A DNA stretch of 64,000 bases from a virus (Duplodnaviria; Heunggongvirae; Uroviricota; Caudoviricetes): positions 108,581 to 172,580 of IMG/VR virus record IMGVR_UViG_3300022562_000051, one strand, 5' to 3'. Shown here piece by piece: positions 9,644 through 63,997 of this stretch. Under the pieces are notes generated by a model. It made no database searches and was not told the DNA's origin. It saw only the letters and a list, made by a program, of their open reading frames with translations. The first letter of the stretch is position 1. Each line of letters begins with the position of its first letter. The translations under genes were made by a program, and so were the position numbers.

Positions 9644-9873
9644 TGGAAGAGAAAGCACCAGAGGTTGAAGTCCAAGAAAACCCAAAGTTGCGTGGACACG
9701 ATTTCTCGGGTTGGTTTCGCGGCGTGGCTCCGGTCTTTCGTCGTACCAAGGAAAGGGATCACTCAGCCAATCAATTGAAGCTATATAGTCCATGCTCTTG
9801 CGGCAGTGGAAAGAAGTATAAGTGGTGCTGCAAGGGCAAGGATAAGTTTGTCCTGAATACGGATGCGGGGTAG
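9643..9873 (+). CDS. SEC-C motif small protein
   Basis: C-terminal CSCGSGKKYKWCC = SecA-type SEC-C zinc motif. Confidence 0.5.
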   Translation: MEEKAPEVEVQENPKLRGHDFSGWFRGVAPVFRRTKERDHSANQLKLYSPCSCGSGKKYKWCCKGKDKFVLNTDAG

Positions 9874-9938
9874 TTCAGAAGTAGAACGCTGGATTCATAA
9901 TCCAGAGGTCGGTGGTGCGAATCCATCCCCCGCTACCA
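9864..9938 (+). tRNA. tRNA-Met/Ile2-like (anticodon CAT)
   Basis: Cloverleaf by eye: anticodon arm CTGGA-TTCATAA-TCCAG, T-arm GGTGG-TGCGAAT-CCATC, 3' CCA encoded. Apparent U1-U72 mismatch. Confidence 0.6.
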
Positions 9939-51094: not shown

Positions 51095-52504
51095 ATGAAC
51101 AAGTTCGTAGCAGCGGCGGTTTCCACGCCAACCCTTTCCCGTACTCAGAACAACATGAAGGCATTTGCGGATACCGCAAGTCCTGTCGTTGATCTGTTCT
51201 ACAATGTCGGTGCAAGCCGTGGTAAGGACATTACTCCAATGTTCCGTCGCGCATTTGCGACTGACGAAGACCTAGCACTGCGTATCGCTCTGTGGGCGCG
51301 TGACGTTCGCGGCGGTGCCGGTGAGCGTGAGGTTTTCCGTAGCGTTCTGCGCTGGCTGGAAATCCATGAGCCAGAGATTCTTCTGAACACTAAGTTTCTG
51401 GAAAAGGTTCCAGAGGTTGGTCGTTGGGACGATCTGCTGGTCTTCAACTTCAATCCAGAAGTCAAGTCCAAGGCGTTCGACCTGATTCACGCTGCGCTCA
51501 AGGCTGGCAACGGTCTTGCGGCAAAGTGGATGCCACGTAAGGGTACCCATGCGGTAGAACTGCGTGAGGCATTCGGGCTGACTCCAAAGCAGTACCGTAA
51601 GACTCTGGTCAACCTGTCTAACACGGTTGAGCAAGCAATGTGCGCAAAGGAATACGAGCGTATCAACTACGCACACGTTCCTTCGCTGGCAATGTCGCGC
51701 TACATGAAGGCGTTCTCCAAGAACGATGCGGAGCGTTTCGTGAAGTATCGCGAGTCGCTGGTCAAGGGTGAAACCAAGATCAATGCGTCTGCGGTCTACC
51801 CATACGATGTAATCAAGACGATTCGTTTCGGCGGCGACGACACGGTTGCTAACGAGCAGTGGAAGGCTCTGCCTGACTACATTGACGATCAGAACATTCT
51901 GCCTATGGTAGACGTTTCTGGTTCGATGTGTTGCCCTGCTGGTAACAACCCAAACGTCCAGTGCATTGACGTTTCGCTTTCCCTTGGTCTGTATTGCGCA
52001 AGCAAGAACAAGGGTGCGTTCAAGGACATGTTCCTGACGTTCTCTGCGCGTCCAGCGATTCAGAAGGTTTCCGGTACGCTCAAGCAGCGTATGAACCAGA
52101 TGAATCAGTCTGATTGGGGAATGAACACCGACCTGATCGCGGCATTCCGTCACATTCTCAAGCTGGCAACGGCTAACGATGTGCCACAGGCAGACATGCC
52201 TTCGGTTGTCCTGATTCTGTCGGACATGCAGTTCGACCAGTGCGCACGGTTTGACGATTCCGCAATGGAGTCCATCAAGCGTCAGTACGCAACGGCTGGA
52301 TACACTGTACCAGTTGTGGTCTTCTGGAACCTGAACGCATCATACGGCAATGCGCCTGTGACGTTCAACGAGAAGGGTGTAGCATTGGTTTCTGGCTTCT
52401 CGCCAGCAATCATGAAGGCAGTCCTCGCGGCTGACTTCGATACCCTGTCGCCAGAGAGCATCGTTCGCGATGCGGTCTGTATCCCAAGGTATGACTACAA
52501 GTAA
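51095..52504 (+). CDS. DUF2828-like N-terminal domain plus C-terminal vWA domain protein
   Basis: RIALWARDVRGGAGER motif; MIDAS DVSGSM. Confidence 0.5.
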   Translation: MNKFVAAAVSTPTLSRTQNNMKAFADTASPVVDLFYNVGASRGKDITPMFRRAFATDEDLALRIALWARDVRGGAGEREVFRSVLRWLEIHEPEILLNTKFLEKVPEVGRWDDLLVFNFNPEVKSKAFDLIHAALKAGNGLAAKWMPRKGTHAVELREAFGLTPKQYRKTLVNLSNTVEQAMCAKEYERINYAHVPSLAMSRYMKAFSKNDAERFVKYRESLVKGETKINASAVYPYDVIKTIRFGGDDTVANEQWKALPDYIDDQNILPMVDVSGSMCCPAGNNPNVQCIDVSLSLGLYCASKNKGAFKDMFLTFSARPAIQKVSGTLKQRMNQMNQSDWGMNTDLIAAFRHILKLATANDVPQADMPSVVLILSDMQFDQCARFDDSAMESIKRQYATAGYTVPVVVFWNLNASYGNAPVTFNEKGVALVSGFSPAIMKAVLAADFDTLSPESIVRDAVCIPRYDYK

Positions 52505-59693: not shown

Positions 59694-59729
59694 TTGACAA
59701 AGACCCCAAGCCTGAGTTATAATGACTAA
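59694..59729 (+). promoter_or_regulatory. sigma70-like promoter (TTGACA, 17 nt spacer, TATAAT)
   Basis: ttgacaaagaccccaagcctgagttataat. Confidence 0.55.
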
Positions 59730-59766
59730 GGCGAAAACGCAGTTGTTTTTAATCTAAGGAACACAG

Positions 59767-59898
59767 ATGGAAAGAATATCGGGACAATGGCGATTGGAAG
59801 GAATGGATAAATCCGTCCAGTGCCGCATTGCGCCCGAAAGCTTTACCGGCACACTGGCAACCTCACACTATAATAGCGGGAGTGCGCCAATGGGTTGA
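59767..59898 (+). CDS. candidate 43-aa leader ORF upstream of the tRNA array
   Basis: AAGGA RBS; its stop abuts alternative hairpins. Confidence 0.25.
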   Translation: MERISGQWRLEGMDKSVQCRIAPESFTGTLATSHYNSGSAPMG

Positions 59899-59936
59899 AC
59901 CCTTTTGAAAATTCAAATTTCTTGAGTATCCAAAAG

Positions 59937-59966
59937 GGTTCTAAGCGAAAGTTTAGAACCTTTTTT
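59937..59966 (+). terminator. rho-independent terminator (attenuator-like)
   Basis: ggttctaa-gcgaaag-ttagaacc plus TTTTTT. Its 5' arm overlaps the 3' arm of an upstream hairpin. Confidence 0.55.
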
Positions 59967-60100
59967 AATACCCAAGTCATTCGCAAGATTGACTGCTCTT
60001 TAACAATTGATGGTTTATTCATTTCCTTTCCGAAAGGATGGGCGTCCCTTCATGGGTCTGTGCAACGACATGCACCCCGCATCTAGTAAGCGGGAACTAC

Positions 60101-60176
60101 TGGCACGTAGTTCAGCGGTAGTAACGTCTGGCTGTTAACCAGAATGTCGTAGGTTCGATCCCTACCGTGCCAGCCA
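60101..60176 (+). tRNA. tRNA-Asn (GTT)
   Basis: Cloverleaf by eye; loop CTGTTAA; CCA encoded. Confidence 0.65.
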
Positions 60177-60182
60177 AATTTC

Positions 60183-60256
60183 GGGGGCTTAGTATAATGG
60201 GATTATCTCTCGCTTGCACCGAGAAGACAGGGGTTCGACTCCCCTAGCCTCCACCA
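60183..60256 (+). tRNA. tRNA-Ala (TGC)
   Basis: G3-U70 pair present; loop CTTGCAC. Confidence 0.65.
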
Positions 60257-60261
60257 AATAT

Positions 60262-60341
60262 GGGACGGACTGTCGTATAACGGCAATTATATCTGGCTCT
60301 TAACCAGTTTGATCAGAGTTCGAATCTCTGCGGTCCCACCA
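60262..60341 (+). tRNA. tRNA-like (possibly Lys-CTT); 5' half non-canonical
   Basis: Good T-arm, acceptor 3' strand and CCA; D/anticodon region cannot be folded cleanly by eye. Confidence 0.35.
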
Positions 60342-60389
60342 AATCTTAACCAGTTTGATCAGAGTTCGAATCTCTGCGGTCCCACCAAA
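60298..60389 (+). repeat. perfect 46-bp tandem duplication covering a tRNA 3' half
   Basis: tcttaaccagtttgatcagagttcgaatctctgcggtcccaccaaa x2. Confidence 0.8.
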
Positions 60390-60436
60390 CATATAGCTGA
60401 GTCGCGGCGGCGAAGTGTCCGCGACAAGATTTAATG

Positions 60437-60513
60437 CGTAGGTAGCACAACTGGCTAGTGTCCTTCCCTGTCACGGAAGAGGGTGCGGGTTCGAATCCCG
60501 TCTTACGCGCCAA
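60437..60513 (+). tRNA. tRNA-Asp (GTC)
   Basis: Loop CTGTCAC. Confidence 0.65.
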
Positions 60514-60518
60514 ACAAT

Positions 60519-60603
60519 GGGTGTACGGTGAAGTTAGAGAGTCACGGCAGTCTGTAAAACTGTTGCTTCGGCTGAGTAGGTGCGAATCCTTCTACACCCA
60601 CCA
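60519..60603 (+). tRNA. tRNA-Tyr (GTA), long variable arm
   Basis: Loop CTGTAAA; type II extra arm. Confidence 0.55.
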
Positions 60604-60725
60604 TTTTGTGTTGTTGATAATATGCCTAGCGAACTGGCGGGTGGAATAAAGTGTGAGTCCATTGCAATAGATGGTGGCACTCCTAAGCAGAAATGTACCG
60701 GTCTTCAACAACACATTTTTTCGAT

Positions 60726-60801
60726 GGGACCATGGCGTAATGGCTAGCGCATCGGGCTTTTAACCCGTAAGGTCAGGGTTCGAATCCCTGTGGTTCTACC
60801 A
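60726..60801 (+). tRNA. tRNA-Lys (TTT)
   Basis: Loop CTTTTAA. Confidence 0.65.
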
Positions 60802-60803
60802 AT

Positions 60804-60896
60804 GCTCCCGTAGTGTAAAGGCAGCACCCGAGGCTTATATCCTCGTTTCCGGCAGATTACCGGGTAGTGTAGGTTCGAATCCTACCGGGAGTACCA
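60804..60896 (+). tRNA. atypical 93-nt tRNA, anticodon UAU (Ile-AUA type?) with ~23-nt extra region
   Basis: Perfect anticodon stem CGAGG/CCTCG, loop CTTATAT, perfect T-arm GTAGG-TTCGAAT-CCTAC. Confidence 0.45.
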
Positions 60897-60904
60897 AGTT
60901 CATT

Positions 60905-60978
60905 TCCCTCTTAGCTCAAAAGTAGAGCATACGGCTGATAACCGTAAGACAAAGGAGCGTTACCTTTAGAGGGAACCA
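60905..60978 (+). tRNA. tRNA-Ile (GAT), non-canonical T-loop AGCGTTA
   Basis: Loop CTGATAA. Confidence 0.55.
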
Positions 60979-60983
60979 AATAT

Positions 60984-61060
60984 CGGAGATTAGCTCAGTC
61001 TGGTAGAGCGCCTGATTTGGGGTCAGGATGTCAAGAGTTCGAATCCCTTATCTCCGACCA
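60984..61060 (+). tRNA. tRNA-Pro (TGG)
   Basis: Loop TTTGGGG. Confidence 0.55.
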
Positions 61061-61065
61061 CTTTC

Positions 61066-61142
61066 GCGAGCGTAGCGCAATAGGCAGAGGCAACAGATTT
61101 AAATCCTGTTAAGTGTGGGTTCGAATCCCACCGCTCGCACCA
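61066..61142 (+). tRNA. tRNA with ambiguous anticodon loop (UAA with A31-C39 mismatch, or 9-nt loop ATTTAAATC)
   Basis: Perfect acceptor GCGAGCG/CGCTCGC and T-arm; AACAG/CTGTT stem would enclose 9 nt. Confidence 0.45.
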
Positions 61143-61144
61143 AT

Positions 61145-61221
61145 GCCCTTGTGATGGAATTGGCATACATACTATCCTCAGAAGGTAGGTTATGTGGGTT
61201 CGAATCCCACCAAGGGTACCA
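61145..61221 (+). tRNA. tRNA, Leu anticodon CAG, short variable loop
   Basis: Loop CTCAGAA; GGAATTGGCATAC D-region. Confidence 0.5.
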
Positions 61222-61228
61222 GATTAAT

Positions 61229-61302
61229 GCGGGATTGGCATATTGGTTGTGTCCAAGTCTTCCAAACTTGTTAAACGAGTTCGATTCTCGTATCCCGCTC
61301 CA
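61229..61302 (+). tRNA. tRNA-Gly (TCC)
   Basis: Loop CTTCCAA. Confidence 0.65.
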
Positions 61303-61307
61303 ACATT

Positions 61308-61383
61308 GTCCTCGTAGCATAACGGAAAGTGCCACAGGCTTCTACCCTGTTTCGTGCGGGTTCGACTCCTGCCGAGGACGCCA
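61308..61383 (+). tRNA. tRNA-Arg (TCT)
   Basis: Loop CTTCTAC. Confidence 0.65.
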
Positions 61384-61388
61384 AATTT

Positions 61389-61463
61389 GTCTCGCTGGTG
61401 TAACTGGCAGCACAATAGTCTCCAAAACTATTAGTTGGGGTTCGAATCCCTAGCGGGACGCCA
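61389..61463 (+). tRNA. tRNA-Trp (CCA)
   Basis: Loop CTCCAAA. Confidence 0.65.
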
Positions 61464-61468
61464 AACAT

Positions 61469-61546
61469 GCGCATGTGACGGGAATTGGCATACCTACTTG
61501 CCTTAGAAGCAAGTGCTTAAGAGTTCGACTCTCTTCGTGCGCACCA
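61469..61546 (+). tRNA. tRNA, Leu anticodon TAG, short variable loop
   Basis: Loop CTTAGAA. Confidence 0.5.
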
Positions 61547-61553
61547 ATTCAAT

Positions 61554-61628
61554 GCCCTTGTGGTGAAACGGAAATCACGCCACGCTACGAACGTGGGATT
61601 GCGGGTTCGATTCCTGCCGAGGGTGCCA
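61554..61628 (+). tRNA. tRNA-Arg (ACG)
   Basis: Loop CTACGAA. Confidence 0.65.
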
Positions 61629-61633
61629 ACATT

Positions 61634-61708
61634 GTCCTTATAGTGTAACGGATAACACTCCACCGTCCGAAGGTGGGAATTCAGGCTCGACTCCTGATAA
61701 GGACGCCA
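61634..61708 (+). tRNA. tRNA-Arg (CCG)
   Basis: Loop GTCCGAA. Confidence 0.6.
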
Positions 61709-61709
61709 C

Positions 61710-61784
61710 GCCGCAATAGTATAATGGCGATTACGGTTGTCTTGTAAGCAACCTATCTCGGTTCGATTCCGAGTTGCGGCTCCA
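61710..61784 (+). tRNA. tRNA-Thr (TGT)
   Basis: Loop CTTGTAA. Confidence 0.65.
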
Positions 61785-61790
61785 ATTTAT

Positions 61791-61866
61791 GTGCCTGTGG
61801 CAGAATGGCTAATGCGTTCGGTTGCAACCCGAAATTCTGTAGGTTCGATTCCTATCAGGCACTCCA
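61791..61866 (+). tRNA. tRNA-Cys (GCA)
   Basis: Loop TTGCAAC. Confidence 0.65.
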
Positions 61867-61872
61867 AACAAT

Positions 61873-61947
61873 GGTCCCGTCGTCTAATGGTCAGGACACC
61901 ACCCTTTCAAGGTGAGAATGAGAGTTCGATTCTCTTCGGGACTACCA
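61873..61947 (+). tRNA. tRNA-Glu (TTC)
   Basis: Loop CTTTCAA. Confidence 0.65.
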
Positions 61948-61953
61948 ATCATT

Positions 61954-62027
61954 GCCCCGCTAGTTTAATGGCAAAACTCTGCTTTTACACGGCAGCTATG
62001 GCAGTTCGATTCTGTCGCGGGGTACCA
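61954..62027 (+). tRNA. tRNA-Val (TAC)
   Basis: Loop TTTACAC. Confidence 0.6.
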
Positions 62028-62033
62028 ATCAGT

Positions 62034-62108
62034 TGCGGGTTGGAGAAGTAGAATCTCATCTGCCTCATAAGCAGAAGATCATAGGTGCAAATCCTATACC
62101 CGCTACCA
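62034..62108 (+). tRNA. tRNA-Met/Ile2-like (CAT), apparent U1-U72 mismatch
   Basis: Loop CTCATAA. Confidence 0.55.
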
Positions 62109-62113
62109 AATAT

Positions 62114-62188
62114 GCCGCCATCGTATAATGGCTATTACGAGGCTTTGGTAAAGCTTAAATGAAAGTTCGATTCTTTCTGGTGGCACCA
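62114..62188 (+). tRNA. tRNA-Thr (GGT)
   Basis: Loop TTGGTAA. Confidence 0.65.
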
Positions 62189-62194
62189 CACAAT

Positions 62195-62269
62195 GCGGAT
62201 GTAGCTCAGTGGTAGAGCGTTTCGTTGCCAACGAAAATGTCGCGAGTTCGACCCTCGTCTTCCGCTCCA
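62195..62269 (+). tRNA. tRNA-Gly (GCC)
   Basis: Loop TTGCCAA. Confidence 0.65.
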
Positions 62270-62276
62270 AATTTTT

Positions 62277-62352
62277 GCCGATTAAGCTAATCTAGTGAAA
62301 GCGTCTGCCTGAAAAGCATAAGAGGTTGGAGCGTAACCAACAATCGGCACCA
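62277..62352 (+). tRNA. tRNA-Phe (GAA), T-loop AGCGTAA
   Basis: Loop CTGAAAA. Confidence 0.55.
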
Positions 62353-62563
62353 GTTAATGGGATGACTACAGCAACTCAACTAAACTCACCAAAACTAGAG
62401 TGGGCAGTCCAGTTGGGGACAGTGCATCGGGTTCGACTCCCGCCTTCAAGCACAAGCATCCCGTCTAATAAGCTATCAGGTCATACCCATTCGGTTATGC
62501 GAATGGGAGTAAAGCTTCCACCGGACGCGGTGGTGAGTAAGACTCAGCAAAAGCCTGACCAAT

Positions 62564-62638
62564 GCTCCTATCGTCTAACGGCTAGGATTTTGCCCTCTCA
62601 AGGCAACGATACGGGTTCGAATCCCGTTAGGAGTACCA
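62564..62638 (+). tRNA. tRNA-Glu (CTC)
   Basis: Loop CTCTCAA. Confidence 0.6.
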
Positions 62639-62647
62639 GATAAATAA

Positions 62648-62722
62648 CAGGATGTAAGTCAGCAGCAGACGCCCTCGCTTGGAACGAGGAAGCCGTGGGT
62701 GCGAGTCCCACCATCCTGACCA
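62648..62722 (+). tRNA. tRNA-Pro (TGG), second copy
   Basis: Loop CTTGGAA. Confidence 0.55.
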
Positions 62723-62727
62723 ACAAT

Positions 62728-62804
62728 GGTGTAGGTAGCATAGTGGCTAATGCCCTTGACTGTGAATCAAGAAGACGCGGGTTCGAATCCCGTCCTATAC
62801 CCCA
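62728..62804 (+). tRNA. tRNA-His (GTG) with G-1
   Basis: Loop CTGTGAA; extra 5' G opposite C73. Confidence 0.65.
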
Positions 62805-62823
62805 AACAACTCGGAGATAAACC

Positions 62824-62991
62824 ATGACTGCGAAAAATGATGTTACTGGCGATACAATAAGAAGTAAAAGCGGAAACCAAAAAGCATACGCAGAAGGATG
62901 GGATAGAATCTTTGGTAAAAAGTTTTCTCGCGAGGAAAAAACACGGTCAGTCTCTACGTGTAAAAATAAGAGGGATTCGAAGTGCGGCTGA
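62824..62991 (+). CDS. 55-aa small protein embedded in the tRNA array
   Basis: GGAGA RBS; motif AYAEGWDRIFGKK. Confidence 0.35.
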   Translation: MTAKNDVTGDTIRSKSGNQKAYAEGWDRIFGKKFSREEKTRSVSTCKNKRDSKCG

Positions 62992-63059
62992 AATAGAGTG
63001 TCTAACGTGGCACTCGCCCCCGGTAAGGTTGGGTTCGGAGTAAGCGCAGCGTAAGTAGT

Positions 63060-63130
63060 GATCCTATAGTATAATGGCAGTGCGCCCGTAAGGTAATCGG
63101 GAAGCGTGGGTTCGAATCCCGCTAGGTTTC
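63060..63130 (+). pseudogene. tRNA-like or degenerate tRNA (no CCA, aberrant anticodon arm)
   Basis: Good T-arm GTGGG-TTCGAAT-CCCGC and D-arm; anticodon loop lacks U33. Confidence 0.3.
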
Positions 63131-63167
63131 ATGGTGCCGCTTTCGGAATACAAATGGCACCTTCTAT

Positions 63168-63241
63168 TCAGGGATCGTCTAAAGGCAGGACGCGAGACTT
63201 TGAATCTCGCTATCTAGGTTCGAATCCTAGTCCCTGAACCA
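63168..63241 (+). tRNA. tRNA-Gln (TTG)
   Basis: Loop CTTTGAA. Confidence 0.65.
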
Positions 63242-63249
63242 AATTCTAT

Positions 63250-63323
63250 TCCCCACTCGTCTAAAGGCAGGACATGAGTCTCTGAAACTCAGAATCGTGG
63301 TTCGAATCCATGGTGGGGAGCCA
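63250..63323 (+). tRNA. tRNA-Gln (CTG)
   Basis: Loop CTCTGAA. Confidence 0.65.
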
Positions 63324-63328
63324 ACATT

Positions 63329-63419
63329 GGCGAGTCTACCGTATTGGCGCACGGCACTGCCTTGAAAGCAGTTTGATTCAGAAATGGGTTTGTAGGTTCG
63401 ACTCCTACACTCGCCGCCA
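63329..63419 (+). tRNA. tRNA-Ser (TGA), type II
   Basis: Loop CTTGAAA; long extra arm. Confidence 0.65.
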
Positions 63420-63423
63420 AATT

Positions 63424-63514
63424 GGAAGTGTGACAGAGAGGCTAATTGTCCCTGTTTGCTAAACAGTGTGGATCAGAAATGGTCACGTAGGTTCGAATCC
63501 TACCACTTCCGCCA
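63424..63514 (+). tRNA. tRNA-Ser (GCT), type II
   Basis: Loop TTGCTAA; long extra arm. Confidence 0.6.
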
Positions 63515-63520
63515 GAACAT

Positions 63521-63580
63521 GGGAAACGTCCAGCAAACCAAAATAACTTTACCTGTAATAAAGCTAAAACCGTTTCCCGA
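63521..63580 (+). ncRNA. T-arm-less tRNA-like element (paralog 1)
   Basis: 8-bp acceptor-like stem GGGAAACG/CGTTTCCC plus perfect 5-bp stem CTTTA/TAAAG with 7-nt loop CCTGTAA. Confidence 0.35.
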
Positions 63581-63586
63581 CTTTTC

Positions 63587-63660
63587 GATCCCTTCGTATA
63601 GAAGCATTACACTGCCTTGACATGGCAGAAAAGATGGAGCGTTACCATCAGGGATCACCA
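63587..63660 (+). tRNA. tRNA-Val (GAC), T-loop AGCGTTA
   Basis: Loop TTGACAT; perfect anticodon stem CTGCC/GGCAG. Confidence 0.55.
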
Positions 63661-63665
63661 ATTAT

Positions 63666-63753
63666 GGAAGACTAACCGTACAAGGTGCGGACTCGTTTCG
63701 AAAGCGATGGGAATCCGAAAGGGTTTGGGGAGCGTTACCTCAGTCTTCCGCCA
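63666..63753 (+). tRNA. tRNA-Ser (CGA), type II, T-loop AGCGTTA
   Basis: Loop TTCGAAA; extra arm with GAAA tetraloop. Confidence 0.5.
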
Positions 63754-63758
63754 ATTTC

Positions 63759-63830
63759 AGGAATGTTACAGCATACCACTTTGTTACCATAAAGTCTGCG
63801 GAAGAAAACAAGCTCCGCAACATTCCTGAC
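63759..63830 (+). ncRNA. T-arm-less tRNA-like element (paralog 2)
   Basis: 10-bp terminal stem CAGGAATGTT/AACATTCCTG; internal CTTTG-TTACCAT-AAAG hairpin similar to paralog 1. Confidence 0.35.
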
Positions 63831-63837
63831 CTACTAT

Positions 63838-63915
63838 GGACAACTGACGGGAATTGGCATACCTACTATCCTCAAAAGTTAGTGTTTCTCGGTTCGAATC
63901 CGAGGTTGTCTACCA
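63838..63915 (+). tRNA. tRNA, Leu anticodon CAA, short variable loop
   Basis: Loop CTCAAAA. Confidence 0.5.
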
Positions 63916-63919
63916 ATAC

Positions 63920-63997
63920 GCAAACGTGAAGGGAATTGGCATACCTACTTGGTCGAGAGCCAAGTGTTTGTGGGTTCGACTCCCACCGTTTGCACCA
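63920..63997 (+). tRNA. tRNA, Leu anticodon GAG, short variable loop
   Basis: Loop TCGAGAG; perfect acceptor GCAAACG/CGTTTGC. Confidence 0.5.

Follow-up and report, generated by a model that had tools for sequence, protein, structure and literature searches.

Large multi-tRNA arrays are already a familiar feature of phage genomes. The tRNA complements of huge phages extend into the sixties, and KVP40-type T4-like phages, in which part of such an array is seen, already have about 30 tRNAs. XacN1 carries 56 tRNA genes (PMC5852040). The locus described here is a further member of this kind. It occupies positions 60101–63997 (+) of a 64,000-nucleotide stretch of viral DNA, hereafter the window, and holds 37 tRNA genes in a 3.9-kb block, as a first-pass annotation made from the letters alone had estimated. 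This number is far above the eight tRNAs of T4, as that annotation had pointed out, and exceeds the ∼30 of KVP40-type phages, whereas its statement that the array approaches the largest known phage complements holds only roughly.

Gene content of the array

With default settings, ARAGORN called 34 plus-strand tRNAs within 60101–63997 and, elsewhere in the window, the tRNA-Met(CAU) that had been reported before at 9864. Lowering the threshold added Phe(GAA), Val(GAC) and Ser(CGA), giving a total of 37; further minus-strand calls at this setting were rejected as antisense artefacts. Scored with the Rfam tRNA covariance model (gathering score 29 bits), 34 array genes reach 31.8–66.8 bits and Leu(CAA) 31.5 bits. 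Thus, 35 of the 37 lie at or above the threshold, and the array is not a collection of mostly sub-threshold candidates, the outcome named beforehand as speaking against it. Only Val(GAC) and Ser(CGA) fall below the Rfam reporting level, both with the unusual T-loop AGCGUUA. In the following list, genes were called by default ARAGORN and Rfam unless stated otherwise.

60101–60176, +, tRNA-Asn(GUU), CCA encoded (62.8 bits)
60183–60256, +, tRNA-Ala(UGC), G3-U70, CCA encoded (59.8 bits)
60266–60341, +, tRNA-Lys(CUU), C1xC72 mismatch, CCA encoded (47.5 bits)
60344–60389, +, gene fragment, exact 46-nt tandem copy of the tRNA-Lys(CUU) 3′ half (source 60298–60343; family D3, 100% identity)
60436–60512, +, tRNA-Asp(GUC) (60.8 bits)
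60519–60603, +, tRNA-Tyr(GUA), class II, 12-nt variable arm, T-loop UGCGAAU, D-loop without GG (39.3 bits)
60726–60801, +, tRNA-Lys(UUU) (66.5 bits)
60804–60896, +, tRNA-Ile(UAU), 93 nt, five arms, CCA encoded (55.7 bits)
60905–60978, +, tRNA-Ile(GAU), T-loop AGCGUUA, D-loop AAAAGUA (no GG) (57.8 bits)
60984–61060, +, tRNA-Pro(UGG) (62.1 bits)
61066–61142, +, tRNA-Leu(UAA), class I (5-nt variable loop), A73 (54 bits)
61145–61221, +, tRNA-Leu(CAG), class I, A73 (54.1 bits)
61229–61302, +, tRNA-Gly(UCC)
61308–61383, +, tRNA-Arg(UCU)
61389–61463, +, tRNA-Trp(CCA)
61469–61546, +, tRNA-Leu(UAG), class I, D-arm GGGAAUUGGCAUAC, A73 (46.6 bits)
61554–61628, +, tRNA-Arg(ACG)
61634–61708, +, tRNA-Arg(CCG), T-loop CUCGACU
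61710–61784, +, tRNA-Thr(UGU)
61791–61866, +, tRNA-Cys(GCA)
61873–61947, +, tRNA-Glu(UUC)
61954–62027, +, tRNA-Val(UAC)
62034–62108, +, tRNA(CAU) (Met, initiator or Ile2 type), U1xU72 mismatch, T-loop UGCAAAU, D-loop without GG (57.9 bits)
62114–62188, +, tRNA-Thr(GGU)
62195–62269, +, tRNA-Gly(GCC) (66.8 bits)
62277–62352, +, tRNA-Phe(GAA), T-loop AGCGUAA, D-loop without GG (lowered-threshold ARAGORN; 46.2 bits)
62564–62638, +, tRNA-Glu(CUC)
62648–62722, +, second tRNA-Pro(UGG), T-loop UGCGAGU, D-loop without GG (54.5 bits)
62728–62804, +, tRNA-His(GUG), encoded G-1 (66.6 bits)
63060–63130, +, degenerate Thr(GGU)-like tRNA without CCA, mismatched acceptor and anticodon stems, odd loop AAGGUAA (41.5 bits)
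63168–63241, +, tRNA-Gln(UUG)
63250–63323, +, tRNA-Gln(CUG)
63329–63419, +, tRNA-Ser(UGA), class II, G73 (36 bits)
63424–63514, +, tRNA-Ser(GCU), class II, G73 (46.5 bits)
63587–63660, +, tRNA-Val(GAC), T-loop AGCGUUA, D-loop without GG (lowered-threshold ARAGORN only; L001 orthologue)
63666–63753, +, tRNA-Ser(CGA), class II, G73, T-loop AGCGUUA (lowered-threshold ARAGORN only)
63838–63915, +, tRNA-Leu(CAA), class I, A73 (31.5 bits)
63920–63997, +, tRNA-Leu(GAG), class I, A73, final gene before the window end (31.8 bits)
9864–9938, +, isolated tRNA(CAU), paralogue of 62034, U1xU72, T-loop UGCGAAU, D-loop without GG (64.2 bits)

The array genes lie head to tail in a single orientation, with spacers of 1–9 nt in 27 of 36 cases, close to the 2–8 nt given earlier for most of them. 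All four stems and an encoded CCA are kept in 36 of the 37. The exception, the degenerate Thr(GGU)-like copy at 63060–63130, is probably a pseudogene; the other 36 genes look intact. The 35 distinct anticodons cover all 20 amino acids (most had been claimed) and, under bacterial wobble rules, are predicted to make essentially every sense codon readable. The final tRNA stops 3 nt short of the window edge, which probably truncates the array.

The hand-folded identities of the first-pass annotation proved almost all right, including the three genes missed by default ARAGORN, the queried UAU anticodon of the 93-nt tRNA and the G-1 of tRNA-His (62728), which lies opposite C73. Some of its counts need correction: there are two lysine tRNAs (CUU and UUU) instead of one, five leucine tRNAs instead of four, one CAU tRNA within the array instead of two, and a third, degenerate threonine gene besides the two listed. 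It was silent on the class I Leu tRNAs, the altered T- and D-loops and the structure behind its Ile(UAU) query.

Phage origin and conservation

The window encodes a gp43-type DNA polymerase (PHROG 262; 54% identity to cyanomyophages), a ribonucleotide reductase, a DnaB-type helicase and a DNA ligase, all with best matches in myophages. One strand carries all of its long ORFs, and its nearest relatives are IMG/VR viral contigs. Judged by this gene content, the array belongs to an uncultured T4-like phage.

Syntenic arrays with the same odd members occur in the uncultured relatives L001/L002, L022 and L025 and run on beyond the point where the window stops. The acceptor stem changes of the Val(GAC) orthologue in L001 are fully compensated, and the L001 tRNA-Ser(UGA) has an acceptor stem identical to that of the window's Ser(CGA). 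Even where the flanking protein of a relative has diverged to 72% identity, the array orthologues, the oddest included, keep their pairing by compensatory changes, which shows that the non-canonical tRNA genes are under selection.

The long variable arm is absent from all five tRNA-Leu genes of the array. Seven array tRNAs combine G55 T-loops with D-loops lacking GG, and by sequence these have replaced the G18G19/T54-Psi55 elbow signature. The class I Leu tRNAs, the tRNAs with altered T- and D-loops and the Ile(UAU) bearing a GAU arm appear to have been remodelled and not simply taken over from a host.

The fifth arm of tRNA-Ile(UAU)

The tRNA-Ile(UAU) has 7/5 acceptor/T stems, A73, C4-G69 and the anticodon loop CUUAUAU at 60834–60840. 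Its minimum-energy fold is a five-arm cloverleaf, and the Rfam alignment accommodates the extra arm as 20 nt inserted into the variable region.

60848–60864, +, variable-arm (V-arm) hairpin of tRNA-Ile(UAU), stem UCCGG/CCGGG, loop CAGAUUA (60853–60859)

GAU (60855–60857) occupies the anticodon position of this 7-nt loop, and the fifth arm looks like a copy of a normal isoleucine anticodon arm. A scan in which only the UAU loop and the T-loop were fixed, leaving the extra arm unspecified, yielded 68 distinct long tRNA(UAU) genes. In 65 of these, a stem of 3 bp or more carries a 7-nt loop of the form NNGAUNN. Pairing in the V-arm stem reaches 98%, and 42 changes are double-sided; sliding the partners lowers the pairing to 31–47%. 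In 57 of the 68 V-arms, C-G stands at the pair equivalent to 29-41; at the same loci, 29-41 is C-G in 16% of all tRNAs and in 72% of tRNA-Ile(GAU). All 51 scorable genes carry A73. In a reverse scan that fixed only CAGAUUA and the T-loop, a UAU anticodon adjoined essentially every true hairpin. Hosts of phages with the GAU V-arm include cyanobacteria, Vibrio, Sinorhizobium and Lactobacillus.

For E. coli IleRS, kcat/Km with UAU is 360-fold lower than with the lysidine form LAU (PMC3575796), and the bacterial Ile identity set comprises A73, C4-G69, C29-G41, G/L34, A35, U36, A37 and A38 (PMC9976931). A pseudo-anticodon engineered into the V-arm is able to recruit a synthetase anticodon-binding domain (PMC7590224). 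Based on the conserved GAU loop on a covarying stem, A73 and the poor charging of UAU by IleRS, we propose that the fifth arm is a pseudo-anticodon that recruits IleRS. A typical bacterial IleRS would reject the UAU anticodon, and the V-arm would supply the elements that it normally reads (G34, A35, U36, A38 and C29-G41), so that the phage could decode AUA without lysidine or TilS. Weak points are two letters of the V-arm loop, A instead of U at the U33 position and U instead of A at the t6A37 position. For E. coli IleRS, t6A37 counts as a positive determinant. A further difficulty is geometry: the variable arm of a class II tRNA with the standard L shape lies away from the site of the IleRS anticodon-binding domains, so that alternative docking or stacking would be needed. 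Also speaking against the proposal are the extra fused domain that Mukai's engineered case needed and the lack of the arm in about a quarter of the sampled viral tRNA(UAU) genes.

The UAU anticodon can misread AUG on E. coli ribosomes (PMC3575796), which makes an added control on tRNA(UAU) plausible, and the arm might instead be a site for a U34 modification enzyme, a shield against anticodon nucleases or a folding aid. These arrays do hold other sporadic non-canonical V-arm tRNAs, but with GNRA-like or variable loops devoid of an anticodon-like triplet, and the exact agreement of the conserved letters with those of Ile identity would then be a coincidence; we consider such another purpose unlikely. 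Charging with Leu or Ser via the long arm, by which AUA would be recoded or miscoded, is more improbable still. A class II architecture can by itself be enough to direct LeuRS or SerRS, the nematode nev-tRNA-Ile(UAU) is leucylated in vitro (PMC3333845, PMC4300185), and allo-tRNAs with UAU anticodons, read as having Ser identity, are common (PMC5389517). However, the stems of the window's tRNA-Ile(UAU) are 7/5 and not 8/4, its D-arm differs from the GGAAUUGG-type Leu D-arm retained by the phage's own Leu tRNAs, and arm length alone does not explain the invariant GAU and the C-G at the 29-41-equivalent pair. Bacterial SerRS requires G73, and the consistent A73 speaks against Ser charging.

Possible function of the array

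By analogy to T4, the array genes would be transcribed as long precursors, host RNase P would cut each tRNA at its 5′ end, and exonucleases would trim the 1–9-nt trailers to the encoded CCA, making a CCA-adding step unnecessary. The set could free phage translation largely from the host tRNA pool, covering supply as well as losses when host tRNAs are degraded or attacked by anticodon-nuclease defences. Against tRNA-cleaving defences, tRNAs encoded by phages are known to rescue infection (PMC10264068, PMC11464382, PMC11555353). Taken whole, a co-oriented array of an uncultured T4-like phage that would make translation largely independent of host tRNAs, with remodelled members and the proposed GAU arm, is very probably the best explanation.

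Codon compensation is the classical explanation of phage tRNAs, and in the window's genes the strongly preferred codons AAG, CAG and UUC are matched by cognate tRNAs. Overall, codon usage is unremarkable, and every codon box has a cognate or wobble reader in the array, even for the rarely used UUA (5% of Leu), CGG (7% of Arg) and AUA (10% of Ile codons). This breadth argues against a mere topping-up of a few rare codons, and many members have altered loops of a kind linked to nuclease evasion (PMC10264068); an array solely for codons used more by the phage than by its host is possible but doubtful. A reading of the array as a relic, with many of the 37 genes decaying into pseudogenes, would agree with the degenerate copy, the duplicated half-gene and the two genes under the Rfam reporting level, but is very unlikely given the retained stems and CCA and the compensated pairing in orthologues. 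Arrays of this sort, V-arm tRNA(UAU) and short Leu tRNAs included, are also found on large bacterial contigs; nevertheless, the single-strand ORFs with their myophage matches and the viral relatives make a bacterial chromosomal array or island the least probable reading, and an extremely improbable one.

Non-tRNA elements in and near the array

59694–59723, +, promoter-like site, sigma-70-type, TTGACA-18-TATAAT (12/12), 380 nt 5′ of the first tRNA
59937–59968, +, terminator-like hairpin GGTTCTAA...TTAGAACC followed by a T-run
60604–60725, +, 122-nt non-tRNA spacer closed by an 11-bp stem (folding z = –1.4, not significant)
62353–62563, +, 211-nt non-tRNA spacer (folding z = –1.4 and –2.8)
62824–62991, +, predicted 55-aa ORF within the array, MTAKNDVTGD...AYAEGWDRIFGKK...
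63754–63837, +, 84-nt structured spacer, 10-bp closing stem and two hairpins (folding z = –5.3)

The sigma-70-type site is the single consensus promoter upstream of the array. Since the terminator-like hairpin intervenes, this site does not define the promoter or transcription unit of the array, and a short upstream transcript may end at the hairpin. The 55-aa ORF had no match in Pfam or PHROG searches. The 211-nt spacer has a 5′ part made of a closing stem and a T-arm-like GGGUUCGACUCCC and a multi-hairpin 3′ part. For the 84-nt spacer, none of 200 shuffles folded equally well.

A tRNA array covering all 20 amino acids

A very large tRNA array had been proposed in the first-pass annotation on the basis of hand-folded cloverleaves. 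ARAGORN, the Rfam tRNA covariance model and a parsing of each gene into stems and loops bear out this proposal, with 37 genes that cover all 20 amino acids by 35 distinct anticodons. Under default settings, ARAGORN called 34 tRNA genes on the plus strand at 60101-63997 and a further tRNA(CAU) at 9864. The covariance model likewise placed 34 array genes at or above its gathering threshold, including a tRNA-Phe(GAA) at 62277 that is absent from the default ARAGORN calls, and a more permissive Rfam run scored tRNA-Leu(CAA) at 63838-63915 with 31.5 bits. Lowering the ARAGORN threshold added three genes and brought the total to 37:

62277-62352, plus strand, tRNA-Phe(GAA)
63587-63660, plus strand, tRNA-Val(GAC)
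63666-63753, plus strand, tRNA-Ser(CGA)

Extra minus-strand calls at this lowered threshold overlap plus-strand tRNAs and were rejected as antisense artefacts. Covariance scoring upholds the array as well: 35 of the 37 genes reach the RF00005 gathering score, and the remaining two are backed by ARAGORN at the lowered threshold and by related genes in L001, one of the related contigs we collected. The hand-folded list of amino acids proved nearly right, except that Lys and Leu had been undercounted (they have two and five genes, respectively) and Met overcounted, with one gene in the array. The G-1 assigned to tRNA-His is present: a G at 62728 faces C73. Intact stems and an encoded CCA were found in 36 array genes. 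The remaining one, at 63060-63130, is a probable pseudogene with a mismatched acceptor stem, an aberrant anticodon loop and no encoded CCA. Most spacers (27 of 36) measure 1-9 nt, and the whole array spans 3.9 kb.

The array lies in a phage genome, as seen from T4-type replication genes in the window and from relatives that are IMG/VR viral contigs. All long ORFs of the window are located on the plus strand. They include genes for a T4 gp43-type DNA polymerase, with at most 54% identity to cyanomyophage polymerases, a ribonucleotide reductase, a DnaB-type helicase and an ATP-dependent DNA ligase. A megablast search with the array revealed no nucleotide-level similarity to cultured phages beyond an 80-nt tRNA match. 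A 67-mer taken from the window's end had no exact match in IMG/VR. We assign the genome on these grounds to an uncultured, distant T4-like phage. Among ten proteins scanned with Pfam, seven of them encoded beside the array, no tRNA-processing or tRNA-modification enzyme was detected. A gene 8 kb upstream of the array, at 51095-52504, specifies a 469-aa DUF2828/DUF7788 protein (PHROG 850, labelled "RNA-binding protein").

The protein encoded directly upstream of the array has relatives with 70-82% identity in IMG/VR and JGI contigs (82% being the JGI metagenome maximum), and in related contigs (L001/L002, L022 and L025) a syntenic tRNA array follows immediately downstream of it. In L001, this array comprises ∼39 plausible tRNAs and goes on past tRNA-Leu(GAG), the last gene of the window, with Arg(CCU), Thr(CGU) and Ser(UGA). 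Because of this continuation, and because the last array tRNA stops 3 nt short of the window edge, the array is very probably cut off by that edge; we infer its further course from the relatives only.

Large phage tRNA arrays are well known, and the array itself is of this type. It resembles the clusters of T4-like phages (8 tRNAs and two stable RNAs in T4, ∼30 tRNAs in KVP40-type Schizotequatrovirus) in its co-oriented, tightly spaced tRNA genes with interspersed small ORFs and non-tRNA structured segments, but it is larger, nearly code-complete and encodes CCA in every intact gene, whereas several T4 tRNAs are without an encoded CCA. With Xanthomonas phage XacN1, which has 56 tRNA genes, it shares a set covering all 20 amino acids. 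However, XacN1 is a 385-kb jumbo phage with tRNAs in terminal repeats (PMC5852040), whereas the present array forms a single block of at least 3.9 kb, with fewer genes, in a T4-like genome. It adds another near-complete tRNA set to T4-like phages and supports the idea that certain phages come with a decoding system that is almost their own.

Under standard bacterial wobble rules, the array anticodons reach every codon box. Codon usage of the window genes is unremarkable, and the rare codons UUA, CGG and AUA still have dedicated tRNAs. This pattern would suit a general independence from the host tRNA pool better than selective codon compensation. Recent work has shown that infection of hosts that cleave their own tRNAs is rescued by phage tRNAs (PMC10264068, PMC11464382, PMC11555353). 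By analogy to T4, the array would be transcribed into polycistronic precursors, RNase P would cut each 5′ end, and exonucleases would trim the short trailers back to the encoded CCA. The following elements lie upstream of the array:

59694-59723, plus strand, perfect σ70 consensus promoter-like site
59767-59898, 43-aa ORF without a match in Pfam or PHROG
59937-59968, plus strand, terminator-like hairpin

Since the hairpin separates the promoter-like site from the array, the site is no more than a candidate promoter for it. The site and the hairpin, which follows ∼215 nt later, enclose the 43-aa ORF, and a short transcription unit of its own may lie at 59694-59968, directly upstream of the array.

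The AUA tRNA carries a fifth arm with a GAU loop

The tRNA for AUA contains a hairpin in its variable region (V-arm) in addition to the usual arms:

60804-60896, plus strand, tRNA-Ile(UAU), 93 nt
60848-60864, plus strand, V-arm hairpin with loop CAGAUUA

ARAGORN, Rfam and minimum-energy folding alike give a five-arm cloverleaf with a 7-bp acceptor stem, a 4-bp D stem, a 5-bp T stem and the anticodon loop CUUAUAU. The second arm consists of 5 bp and a 7-nt loop and is followed by a 4-nt linker of normal length. The 7-nt GAU loop is kept in the orthologues of L001 and L022 (both CAGAUUA) and in distant copies in the related loci L009 and L012, and the V-arm stems of these genes are compensatory (CCGG/CCGG, UCGC/GCGA, GCAC/GUGC and CCGC/GCGG).

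Two other explanations of the structure were rejected. Pairing of the V-arm loop with the T-loop (GAUU with AAUC) would call for matching changes, which are not seen in the variants with other T-loops (L009, L012). The second arm could also have been the true anticodon arm and the first an insertion, but ARAGORN and Rfam both place the anticodon in the first arm, whose loop is of the canonical Y32-U33...A37 form.

GAU arms are widespread and coupled to the UAU anticodon

We scanned IMG/VR with a pattern in which the UAU anticodon loop and a common T-loop, separated by a gap of 28-42 nt, were the only fixed elements. This forward scan yielded at least 120 loci, in which ARAGORN called at least 68 distinct long tRNA(UAU) genes of 88-99 nt. 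Among the matches listed, 65 of 68 carry a variable-region hairpin of at least 3 bp with GAU at positions 3-5 of a 7-nt loop; the loop is CAGAUUA in 40 of those hairpins, and variants include UAGAUUU, UAGAUGA and CCGAUUA. The last of these loops also occurs as the sole anticodon loop of a 75-nt tRNA in L001 (13530-13604).

In 38 distinct hairpins, the 4-bp V-arm stem is 98% paired and shows 42 double-sided changes, compared to 31-47% pairing for slid partners; the hairpins were picked for pairing, which inflates the paired percentage and leaves the covariation unaffected. Two pairs are conserved while their neighbours are free to vary: the pair that closes the loop and the third pair, with C-G at the latter in 57 of 68 genes among the matches listed. 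This third pair equates to 29-41 of an anticodon stem, and C29-G41 is found in 72% of the tRNA-Ile(GAU) genes of these loci, as against 16% of their 2,615 tRNAs overall. At the acceptor end, the family shows A73 in all 51 scorable genes and C4-G69 in 67%, against a background of 32%.

A reverse scan fixed only CAGAUUA and the T-loop. Its 111 distinct contexts included 81 called as long tRNA(UAU), ∼21 more with a UAU loop in a body uncalled by ARAGORN and ∼8 chance matches without a hairpin. This outcome indicates that the arm is specifically coupled to the UAU anticodon. No anticodon-like V-loop was found in 21 other long tRNAs of the collected loci (Leu, Ser and Tyr excluded), the one exception, in locus L119, being a mis-registered member of the UAU family. 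Long and short tRNA(UAU) genes occurred at ∼3:1 in a scan admitting both forms.

The GAU arm is present in cultured phages of cyanobacteria (S-SRM01, S-SKS1), Lactobacillus (LpeD), Sinorhizobium (Phosso) and Vibrio cholerae (12VC501), as well as on many bacterial contigs, often within tRNA arrays, including those of Acidobacteriota, Rhodobacteraceae, Hyphomicrobiales and Sphingopyxis. In the GenBank records of three of these phages, no feature is annotated at the gene:

L232 (S-SRM01), 1500-1589, V-arm tRNA(UAU)
L236 (S-SKS1), 1496-1586, V-arm tRNA(UAU)
L235 (LpeD), 1498-1589, V-arm tRNA(UAU)

Standard annotation can therefore miss these tRNAs. We found no description of a GAU-bearing variable arm in the literature searched, which took in few subscription journals.

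A possible pseudo-anticodon for IleRS

The bacterial isoleucine identity set comprises A73, C4-G69, U12-A23, D-loop bases, C29-G41, G34 or lysidine-34, A35, U36, t6A37 and A38 (PMC9976931). E. coli IleRS charges a tRNA with a UAU anticodon 360-fold less well than the lysidine form, and Mycoplasma mobile has solved the problem of UAU charging by a mutated IleRS (Arg865) (PMC3575796). The tRNA-Ile(UAU) of the window has A73 and C4-G69, as the identity set requires, and G12-C23 in place of U12-A23. Its decoding arm has A35, U36 and A37, but U38 and A29-U41, and it lacks G34 or lysidine-34 (U34 instead); a G is found only at the equivalent position of the V-arm loop. The V-arm also contains the equivalents of A35, U36, A38 and C29-G41, with U replacing A37. 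Since the arm thus supplies G, A, U and A at 34, 35, 36 and 38 and a C-G pair at 29-41, including what the UAU arm lacks, we propose that it is an IleRS-recruiting pseudo-anticodon. The fifth arm would give IleRS its identity signal, and the UAU arm would decode AUA on the ribosome, with no need for TilS. We give somewhat less than an even chance to the full proposal, in which a widespread, apparently undescribed tRNA family of phages and mobile tRNA arrays uses its variable arm as a natural pseudo-anticodon that copies the anticodon stem-loop of tRNA-Ile(GAU).

Several observations speak against this reading. The V-arm loop has an A at the position of U33 besides the U at that of A37, and some viral tRNA(UAU) genes are without the arm. 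Moreover, normal class II geometry puts the variable arm away from where IleRS reads the anticodon, so that the two arms, which are of equal size, would have to stack in an alternative way. Alternatively, the V-arm tRNAs could be charged with Leu or Ser, as proposed for the nematode nev-tRNA-Ile(UAU) and the bacterial allo-tRNA(UAU), which are likewise class II-like with a UAU anticodon (PMC3333845, PMC5389517). The allo-tRNA paper notes that UAU is a predominant anticodon of this group and discusses Ser identity alone (PMC5389517), and some of the Acidobacteriota V-arm genes found here may overlap this group. The long arm would suit a tRNA-Ser, but all 51 scorable genes have A as the discriminator, whereas the Ser tRNAs of the array itself have G73; the non-Leu D-arm and the 7/5 stems also argue against Leu or Ser charging. 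Allo-tRNAs mostly have G73 or U73 and 8/4 or 9/3 stems, in contrast to the 7-bp acceptor stem, 5-bp T stem and A73 of the window gene, and the papers on nev- and allo-tRNAs do not mention a conserved GAU loop (PMC3333845, PMC5389517). As a further alternative, the fifth arm could serve modification of U34 or protection from nucleases.

The proposed pseudo-anticodon would address the same problem as lysidine-CAU/TilS and the tRNA-Ile(UAU) of M. mobile: AUA is read as Ile, yet IleRS must recognise the tRNA (PMC3575796). Lysidine alters an anticodon base and M. mobile altered the enzyme, whereas the window tRNA appears to add a GAU-bearing arm, so that neither the host enzyme nor the UAU anticodon would have to change. 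A comparable arrangement has been engineered, with a hairpin at the tip of the variable arm that copies an anticodon arm and recruits the anticodon-binding domain of a synthetase (Mukai 2020, PMC7590224). This design differs in being artificial, in using HisRS and in requiring an extra fused binding domain, and the paper does not mention Ile, IleRS or UAU (PMC7590224). If IleRS does read the arm, phages would decode AUA without TilS and with an unchanged host enzyme, and the anticodon read by the synthetase would be separated from that read by the ribosome. Such a tRNA would represent a third natural AUA solution, after lysidine/agmatidine and IleRS adaptation, and a natural precedent for the pseudo-anticodon designs of genetic-code engineering. 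Conservation of the GAU-bearing extra arm in most viral tRNA(UAU) genes sampled thus offers a testable idea on tRNA identity.

All leucine tRNAs of the array are class I

Five tRNA-Leu genes are present in the array:

61066-61142, plus strand, tRNA-Leu
61145-61221, plus strand, tRNA-Leu
61469-61546, plus strand, tRNA-Leu
63838-63915, plus strand, tRNA-Leu(CAA)
63920-63997, plus strand, tRNA-Leu(GAG)

Each of them has a 5-nt variable loop, a length of 77-78 nt and A73, and the long variable arm of the canonical bacterial type II tRNA-Leu is absent from all five. Four have a Leu-type D-arm, GGAAUUGGCAUAC, which is close to GGAAUUGGUAGAC of E. coli. Such class I tRNA-Leu genes are common to the relatives of this phage, to KVP40-like Vibrio phages (annotated 77-nt tRNA-Leu, as in V09), to phages of Streptomyces, Acinetobacter and Aeromonas and to bacterial tRNA arrays. 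Within the collected loci, which are a biased sample, 55% of the viral and 86% of the bacterial-array Leu tRNAs measure at most 80 nt, compared to 0-2% of the Ser and Tyr tRNAs, which retain their long arms. The type I tRNA-Leu(CAA) of Streptomyces coelicolor, also a bacterial-type tRNA-Leu without a long variable arm, has been called nearly unique among bacteria and cannot be charged by E. coli LeuRS (PMC6614811). In the present array, by contrast, all five isoacceptors are type I, and phage and island arrays often contain similar genes. Their abundance is at odds with published accounts in which bacterial-type tRNA-Leu is nearly always type II.

Altered elbows and unusual loops

Seven array tRNAs combine G55 in the T-loop with a D-loop that lacks the GG doublet, and so does the isolated tRNA(CAU) at 9864:

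60519-60603, plus strand, array tRNA
60905-60978, plus strand, tRNA-Ile(GAU)
62034-62108, plus strand, tRNA(CAU)
62277-62352, plus strand, tRNA-Phe(GAA)
62648-62722, plus strand, array tRNA
63587-63660, plus strand, tRNA-Val(GAC)
63666-63753, plus strand, tRNA-Ser(CGA)
9864-9938, plus strand, tRNA(CAU) outside the array

Their T-loops are AGCGUUA, AGCGUAA, UGCGAAU, UGCAAAU and UGCGAGU. The first two are found in the Ile(GAU), Phe, Val(GAC) and Ser(CGA) tRNAs, where the usual T54/A58 appear swapped to A54/U58. This pattern suggests a re-engineered D/T elbow, with A18-G55 replacing G18-Ψ55 and A54-U58 replacing T54-A58. Because the L001 orthologues keep the same odd loops while their stems have changed in a compensatory way, the altered elbows are selected features and not decay. 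Both CAU tRNAs (9864-9938 and 62034-62108), which are paralogues, have a U1×U72 mismatch at the top of the acceptor stem, and neither has the three G-C pairs that characterise the anticodon stem of initiators.

Among array-type tRNAs of L001, L012, L021 and L237-L356, C33 replaces the near-universal U33 in 27 of 86 tRNA(GAU), 24 of 79 tRNA(UAC) and 15 of 67 tRNA(UGC) genes. The KVP40-like phage V09 also carries a tRNA-Ile(GAU) with C33.

Spacers, a small ORF and a duplication

Four non-tRNA spacers of 72-211 nt interrupt the array, and the following elements were noted along it:

60298-60389, plus strand, exact 46-nt tandem duplication of the tRNA-Lys(CUU) 3′ half
60401-60425, G+C-rich hairpin
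62353-62563, plus strand, 211-nt spacer
62824-62991, plus strand, 55-aa ORF
63754-63837, plus strand, 84-nt spacer

Rfam detected no known non-tRNA RNA family in the spacers, only sub-threshold tRNA-like noise (for example YrlA with 27.6 bits at a cutoff of 69). For the 84-nt spacer, the fold consists of a 10-bp closing stem around two hairpins (z = -5.3 versus shuffles), and its transcript could be a small stable RNA comparable to T4 species 1 and 2. In the 211-nt spacer, a 6-bp stem closes the 5′ half, which also includes a T-arm-like GGGUUCGACUCCC, and this spacer may contain a degenerate or highly aberrant tRNA-like RNA. The 55-aa ORF (…KAYAEGWDRIFGKK…) is preceded by a GGAG Shine-Dalgarno-like motif and has no match in Pfam or PHROG. 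Together with the Lys duplication, the spacers and this ORF are reminiscent of the T4 tRNA region with its stable RNAs and small ORFs. The duplication itself, which is followed by the G+C-rich hairpin, looks like a scar of replication slippage or recombination.
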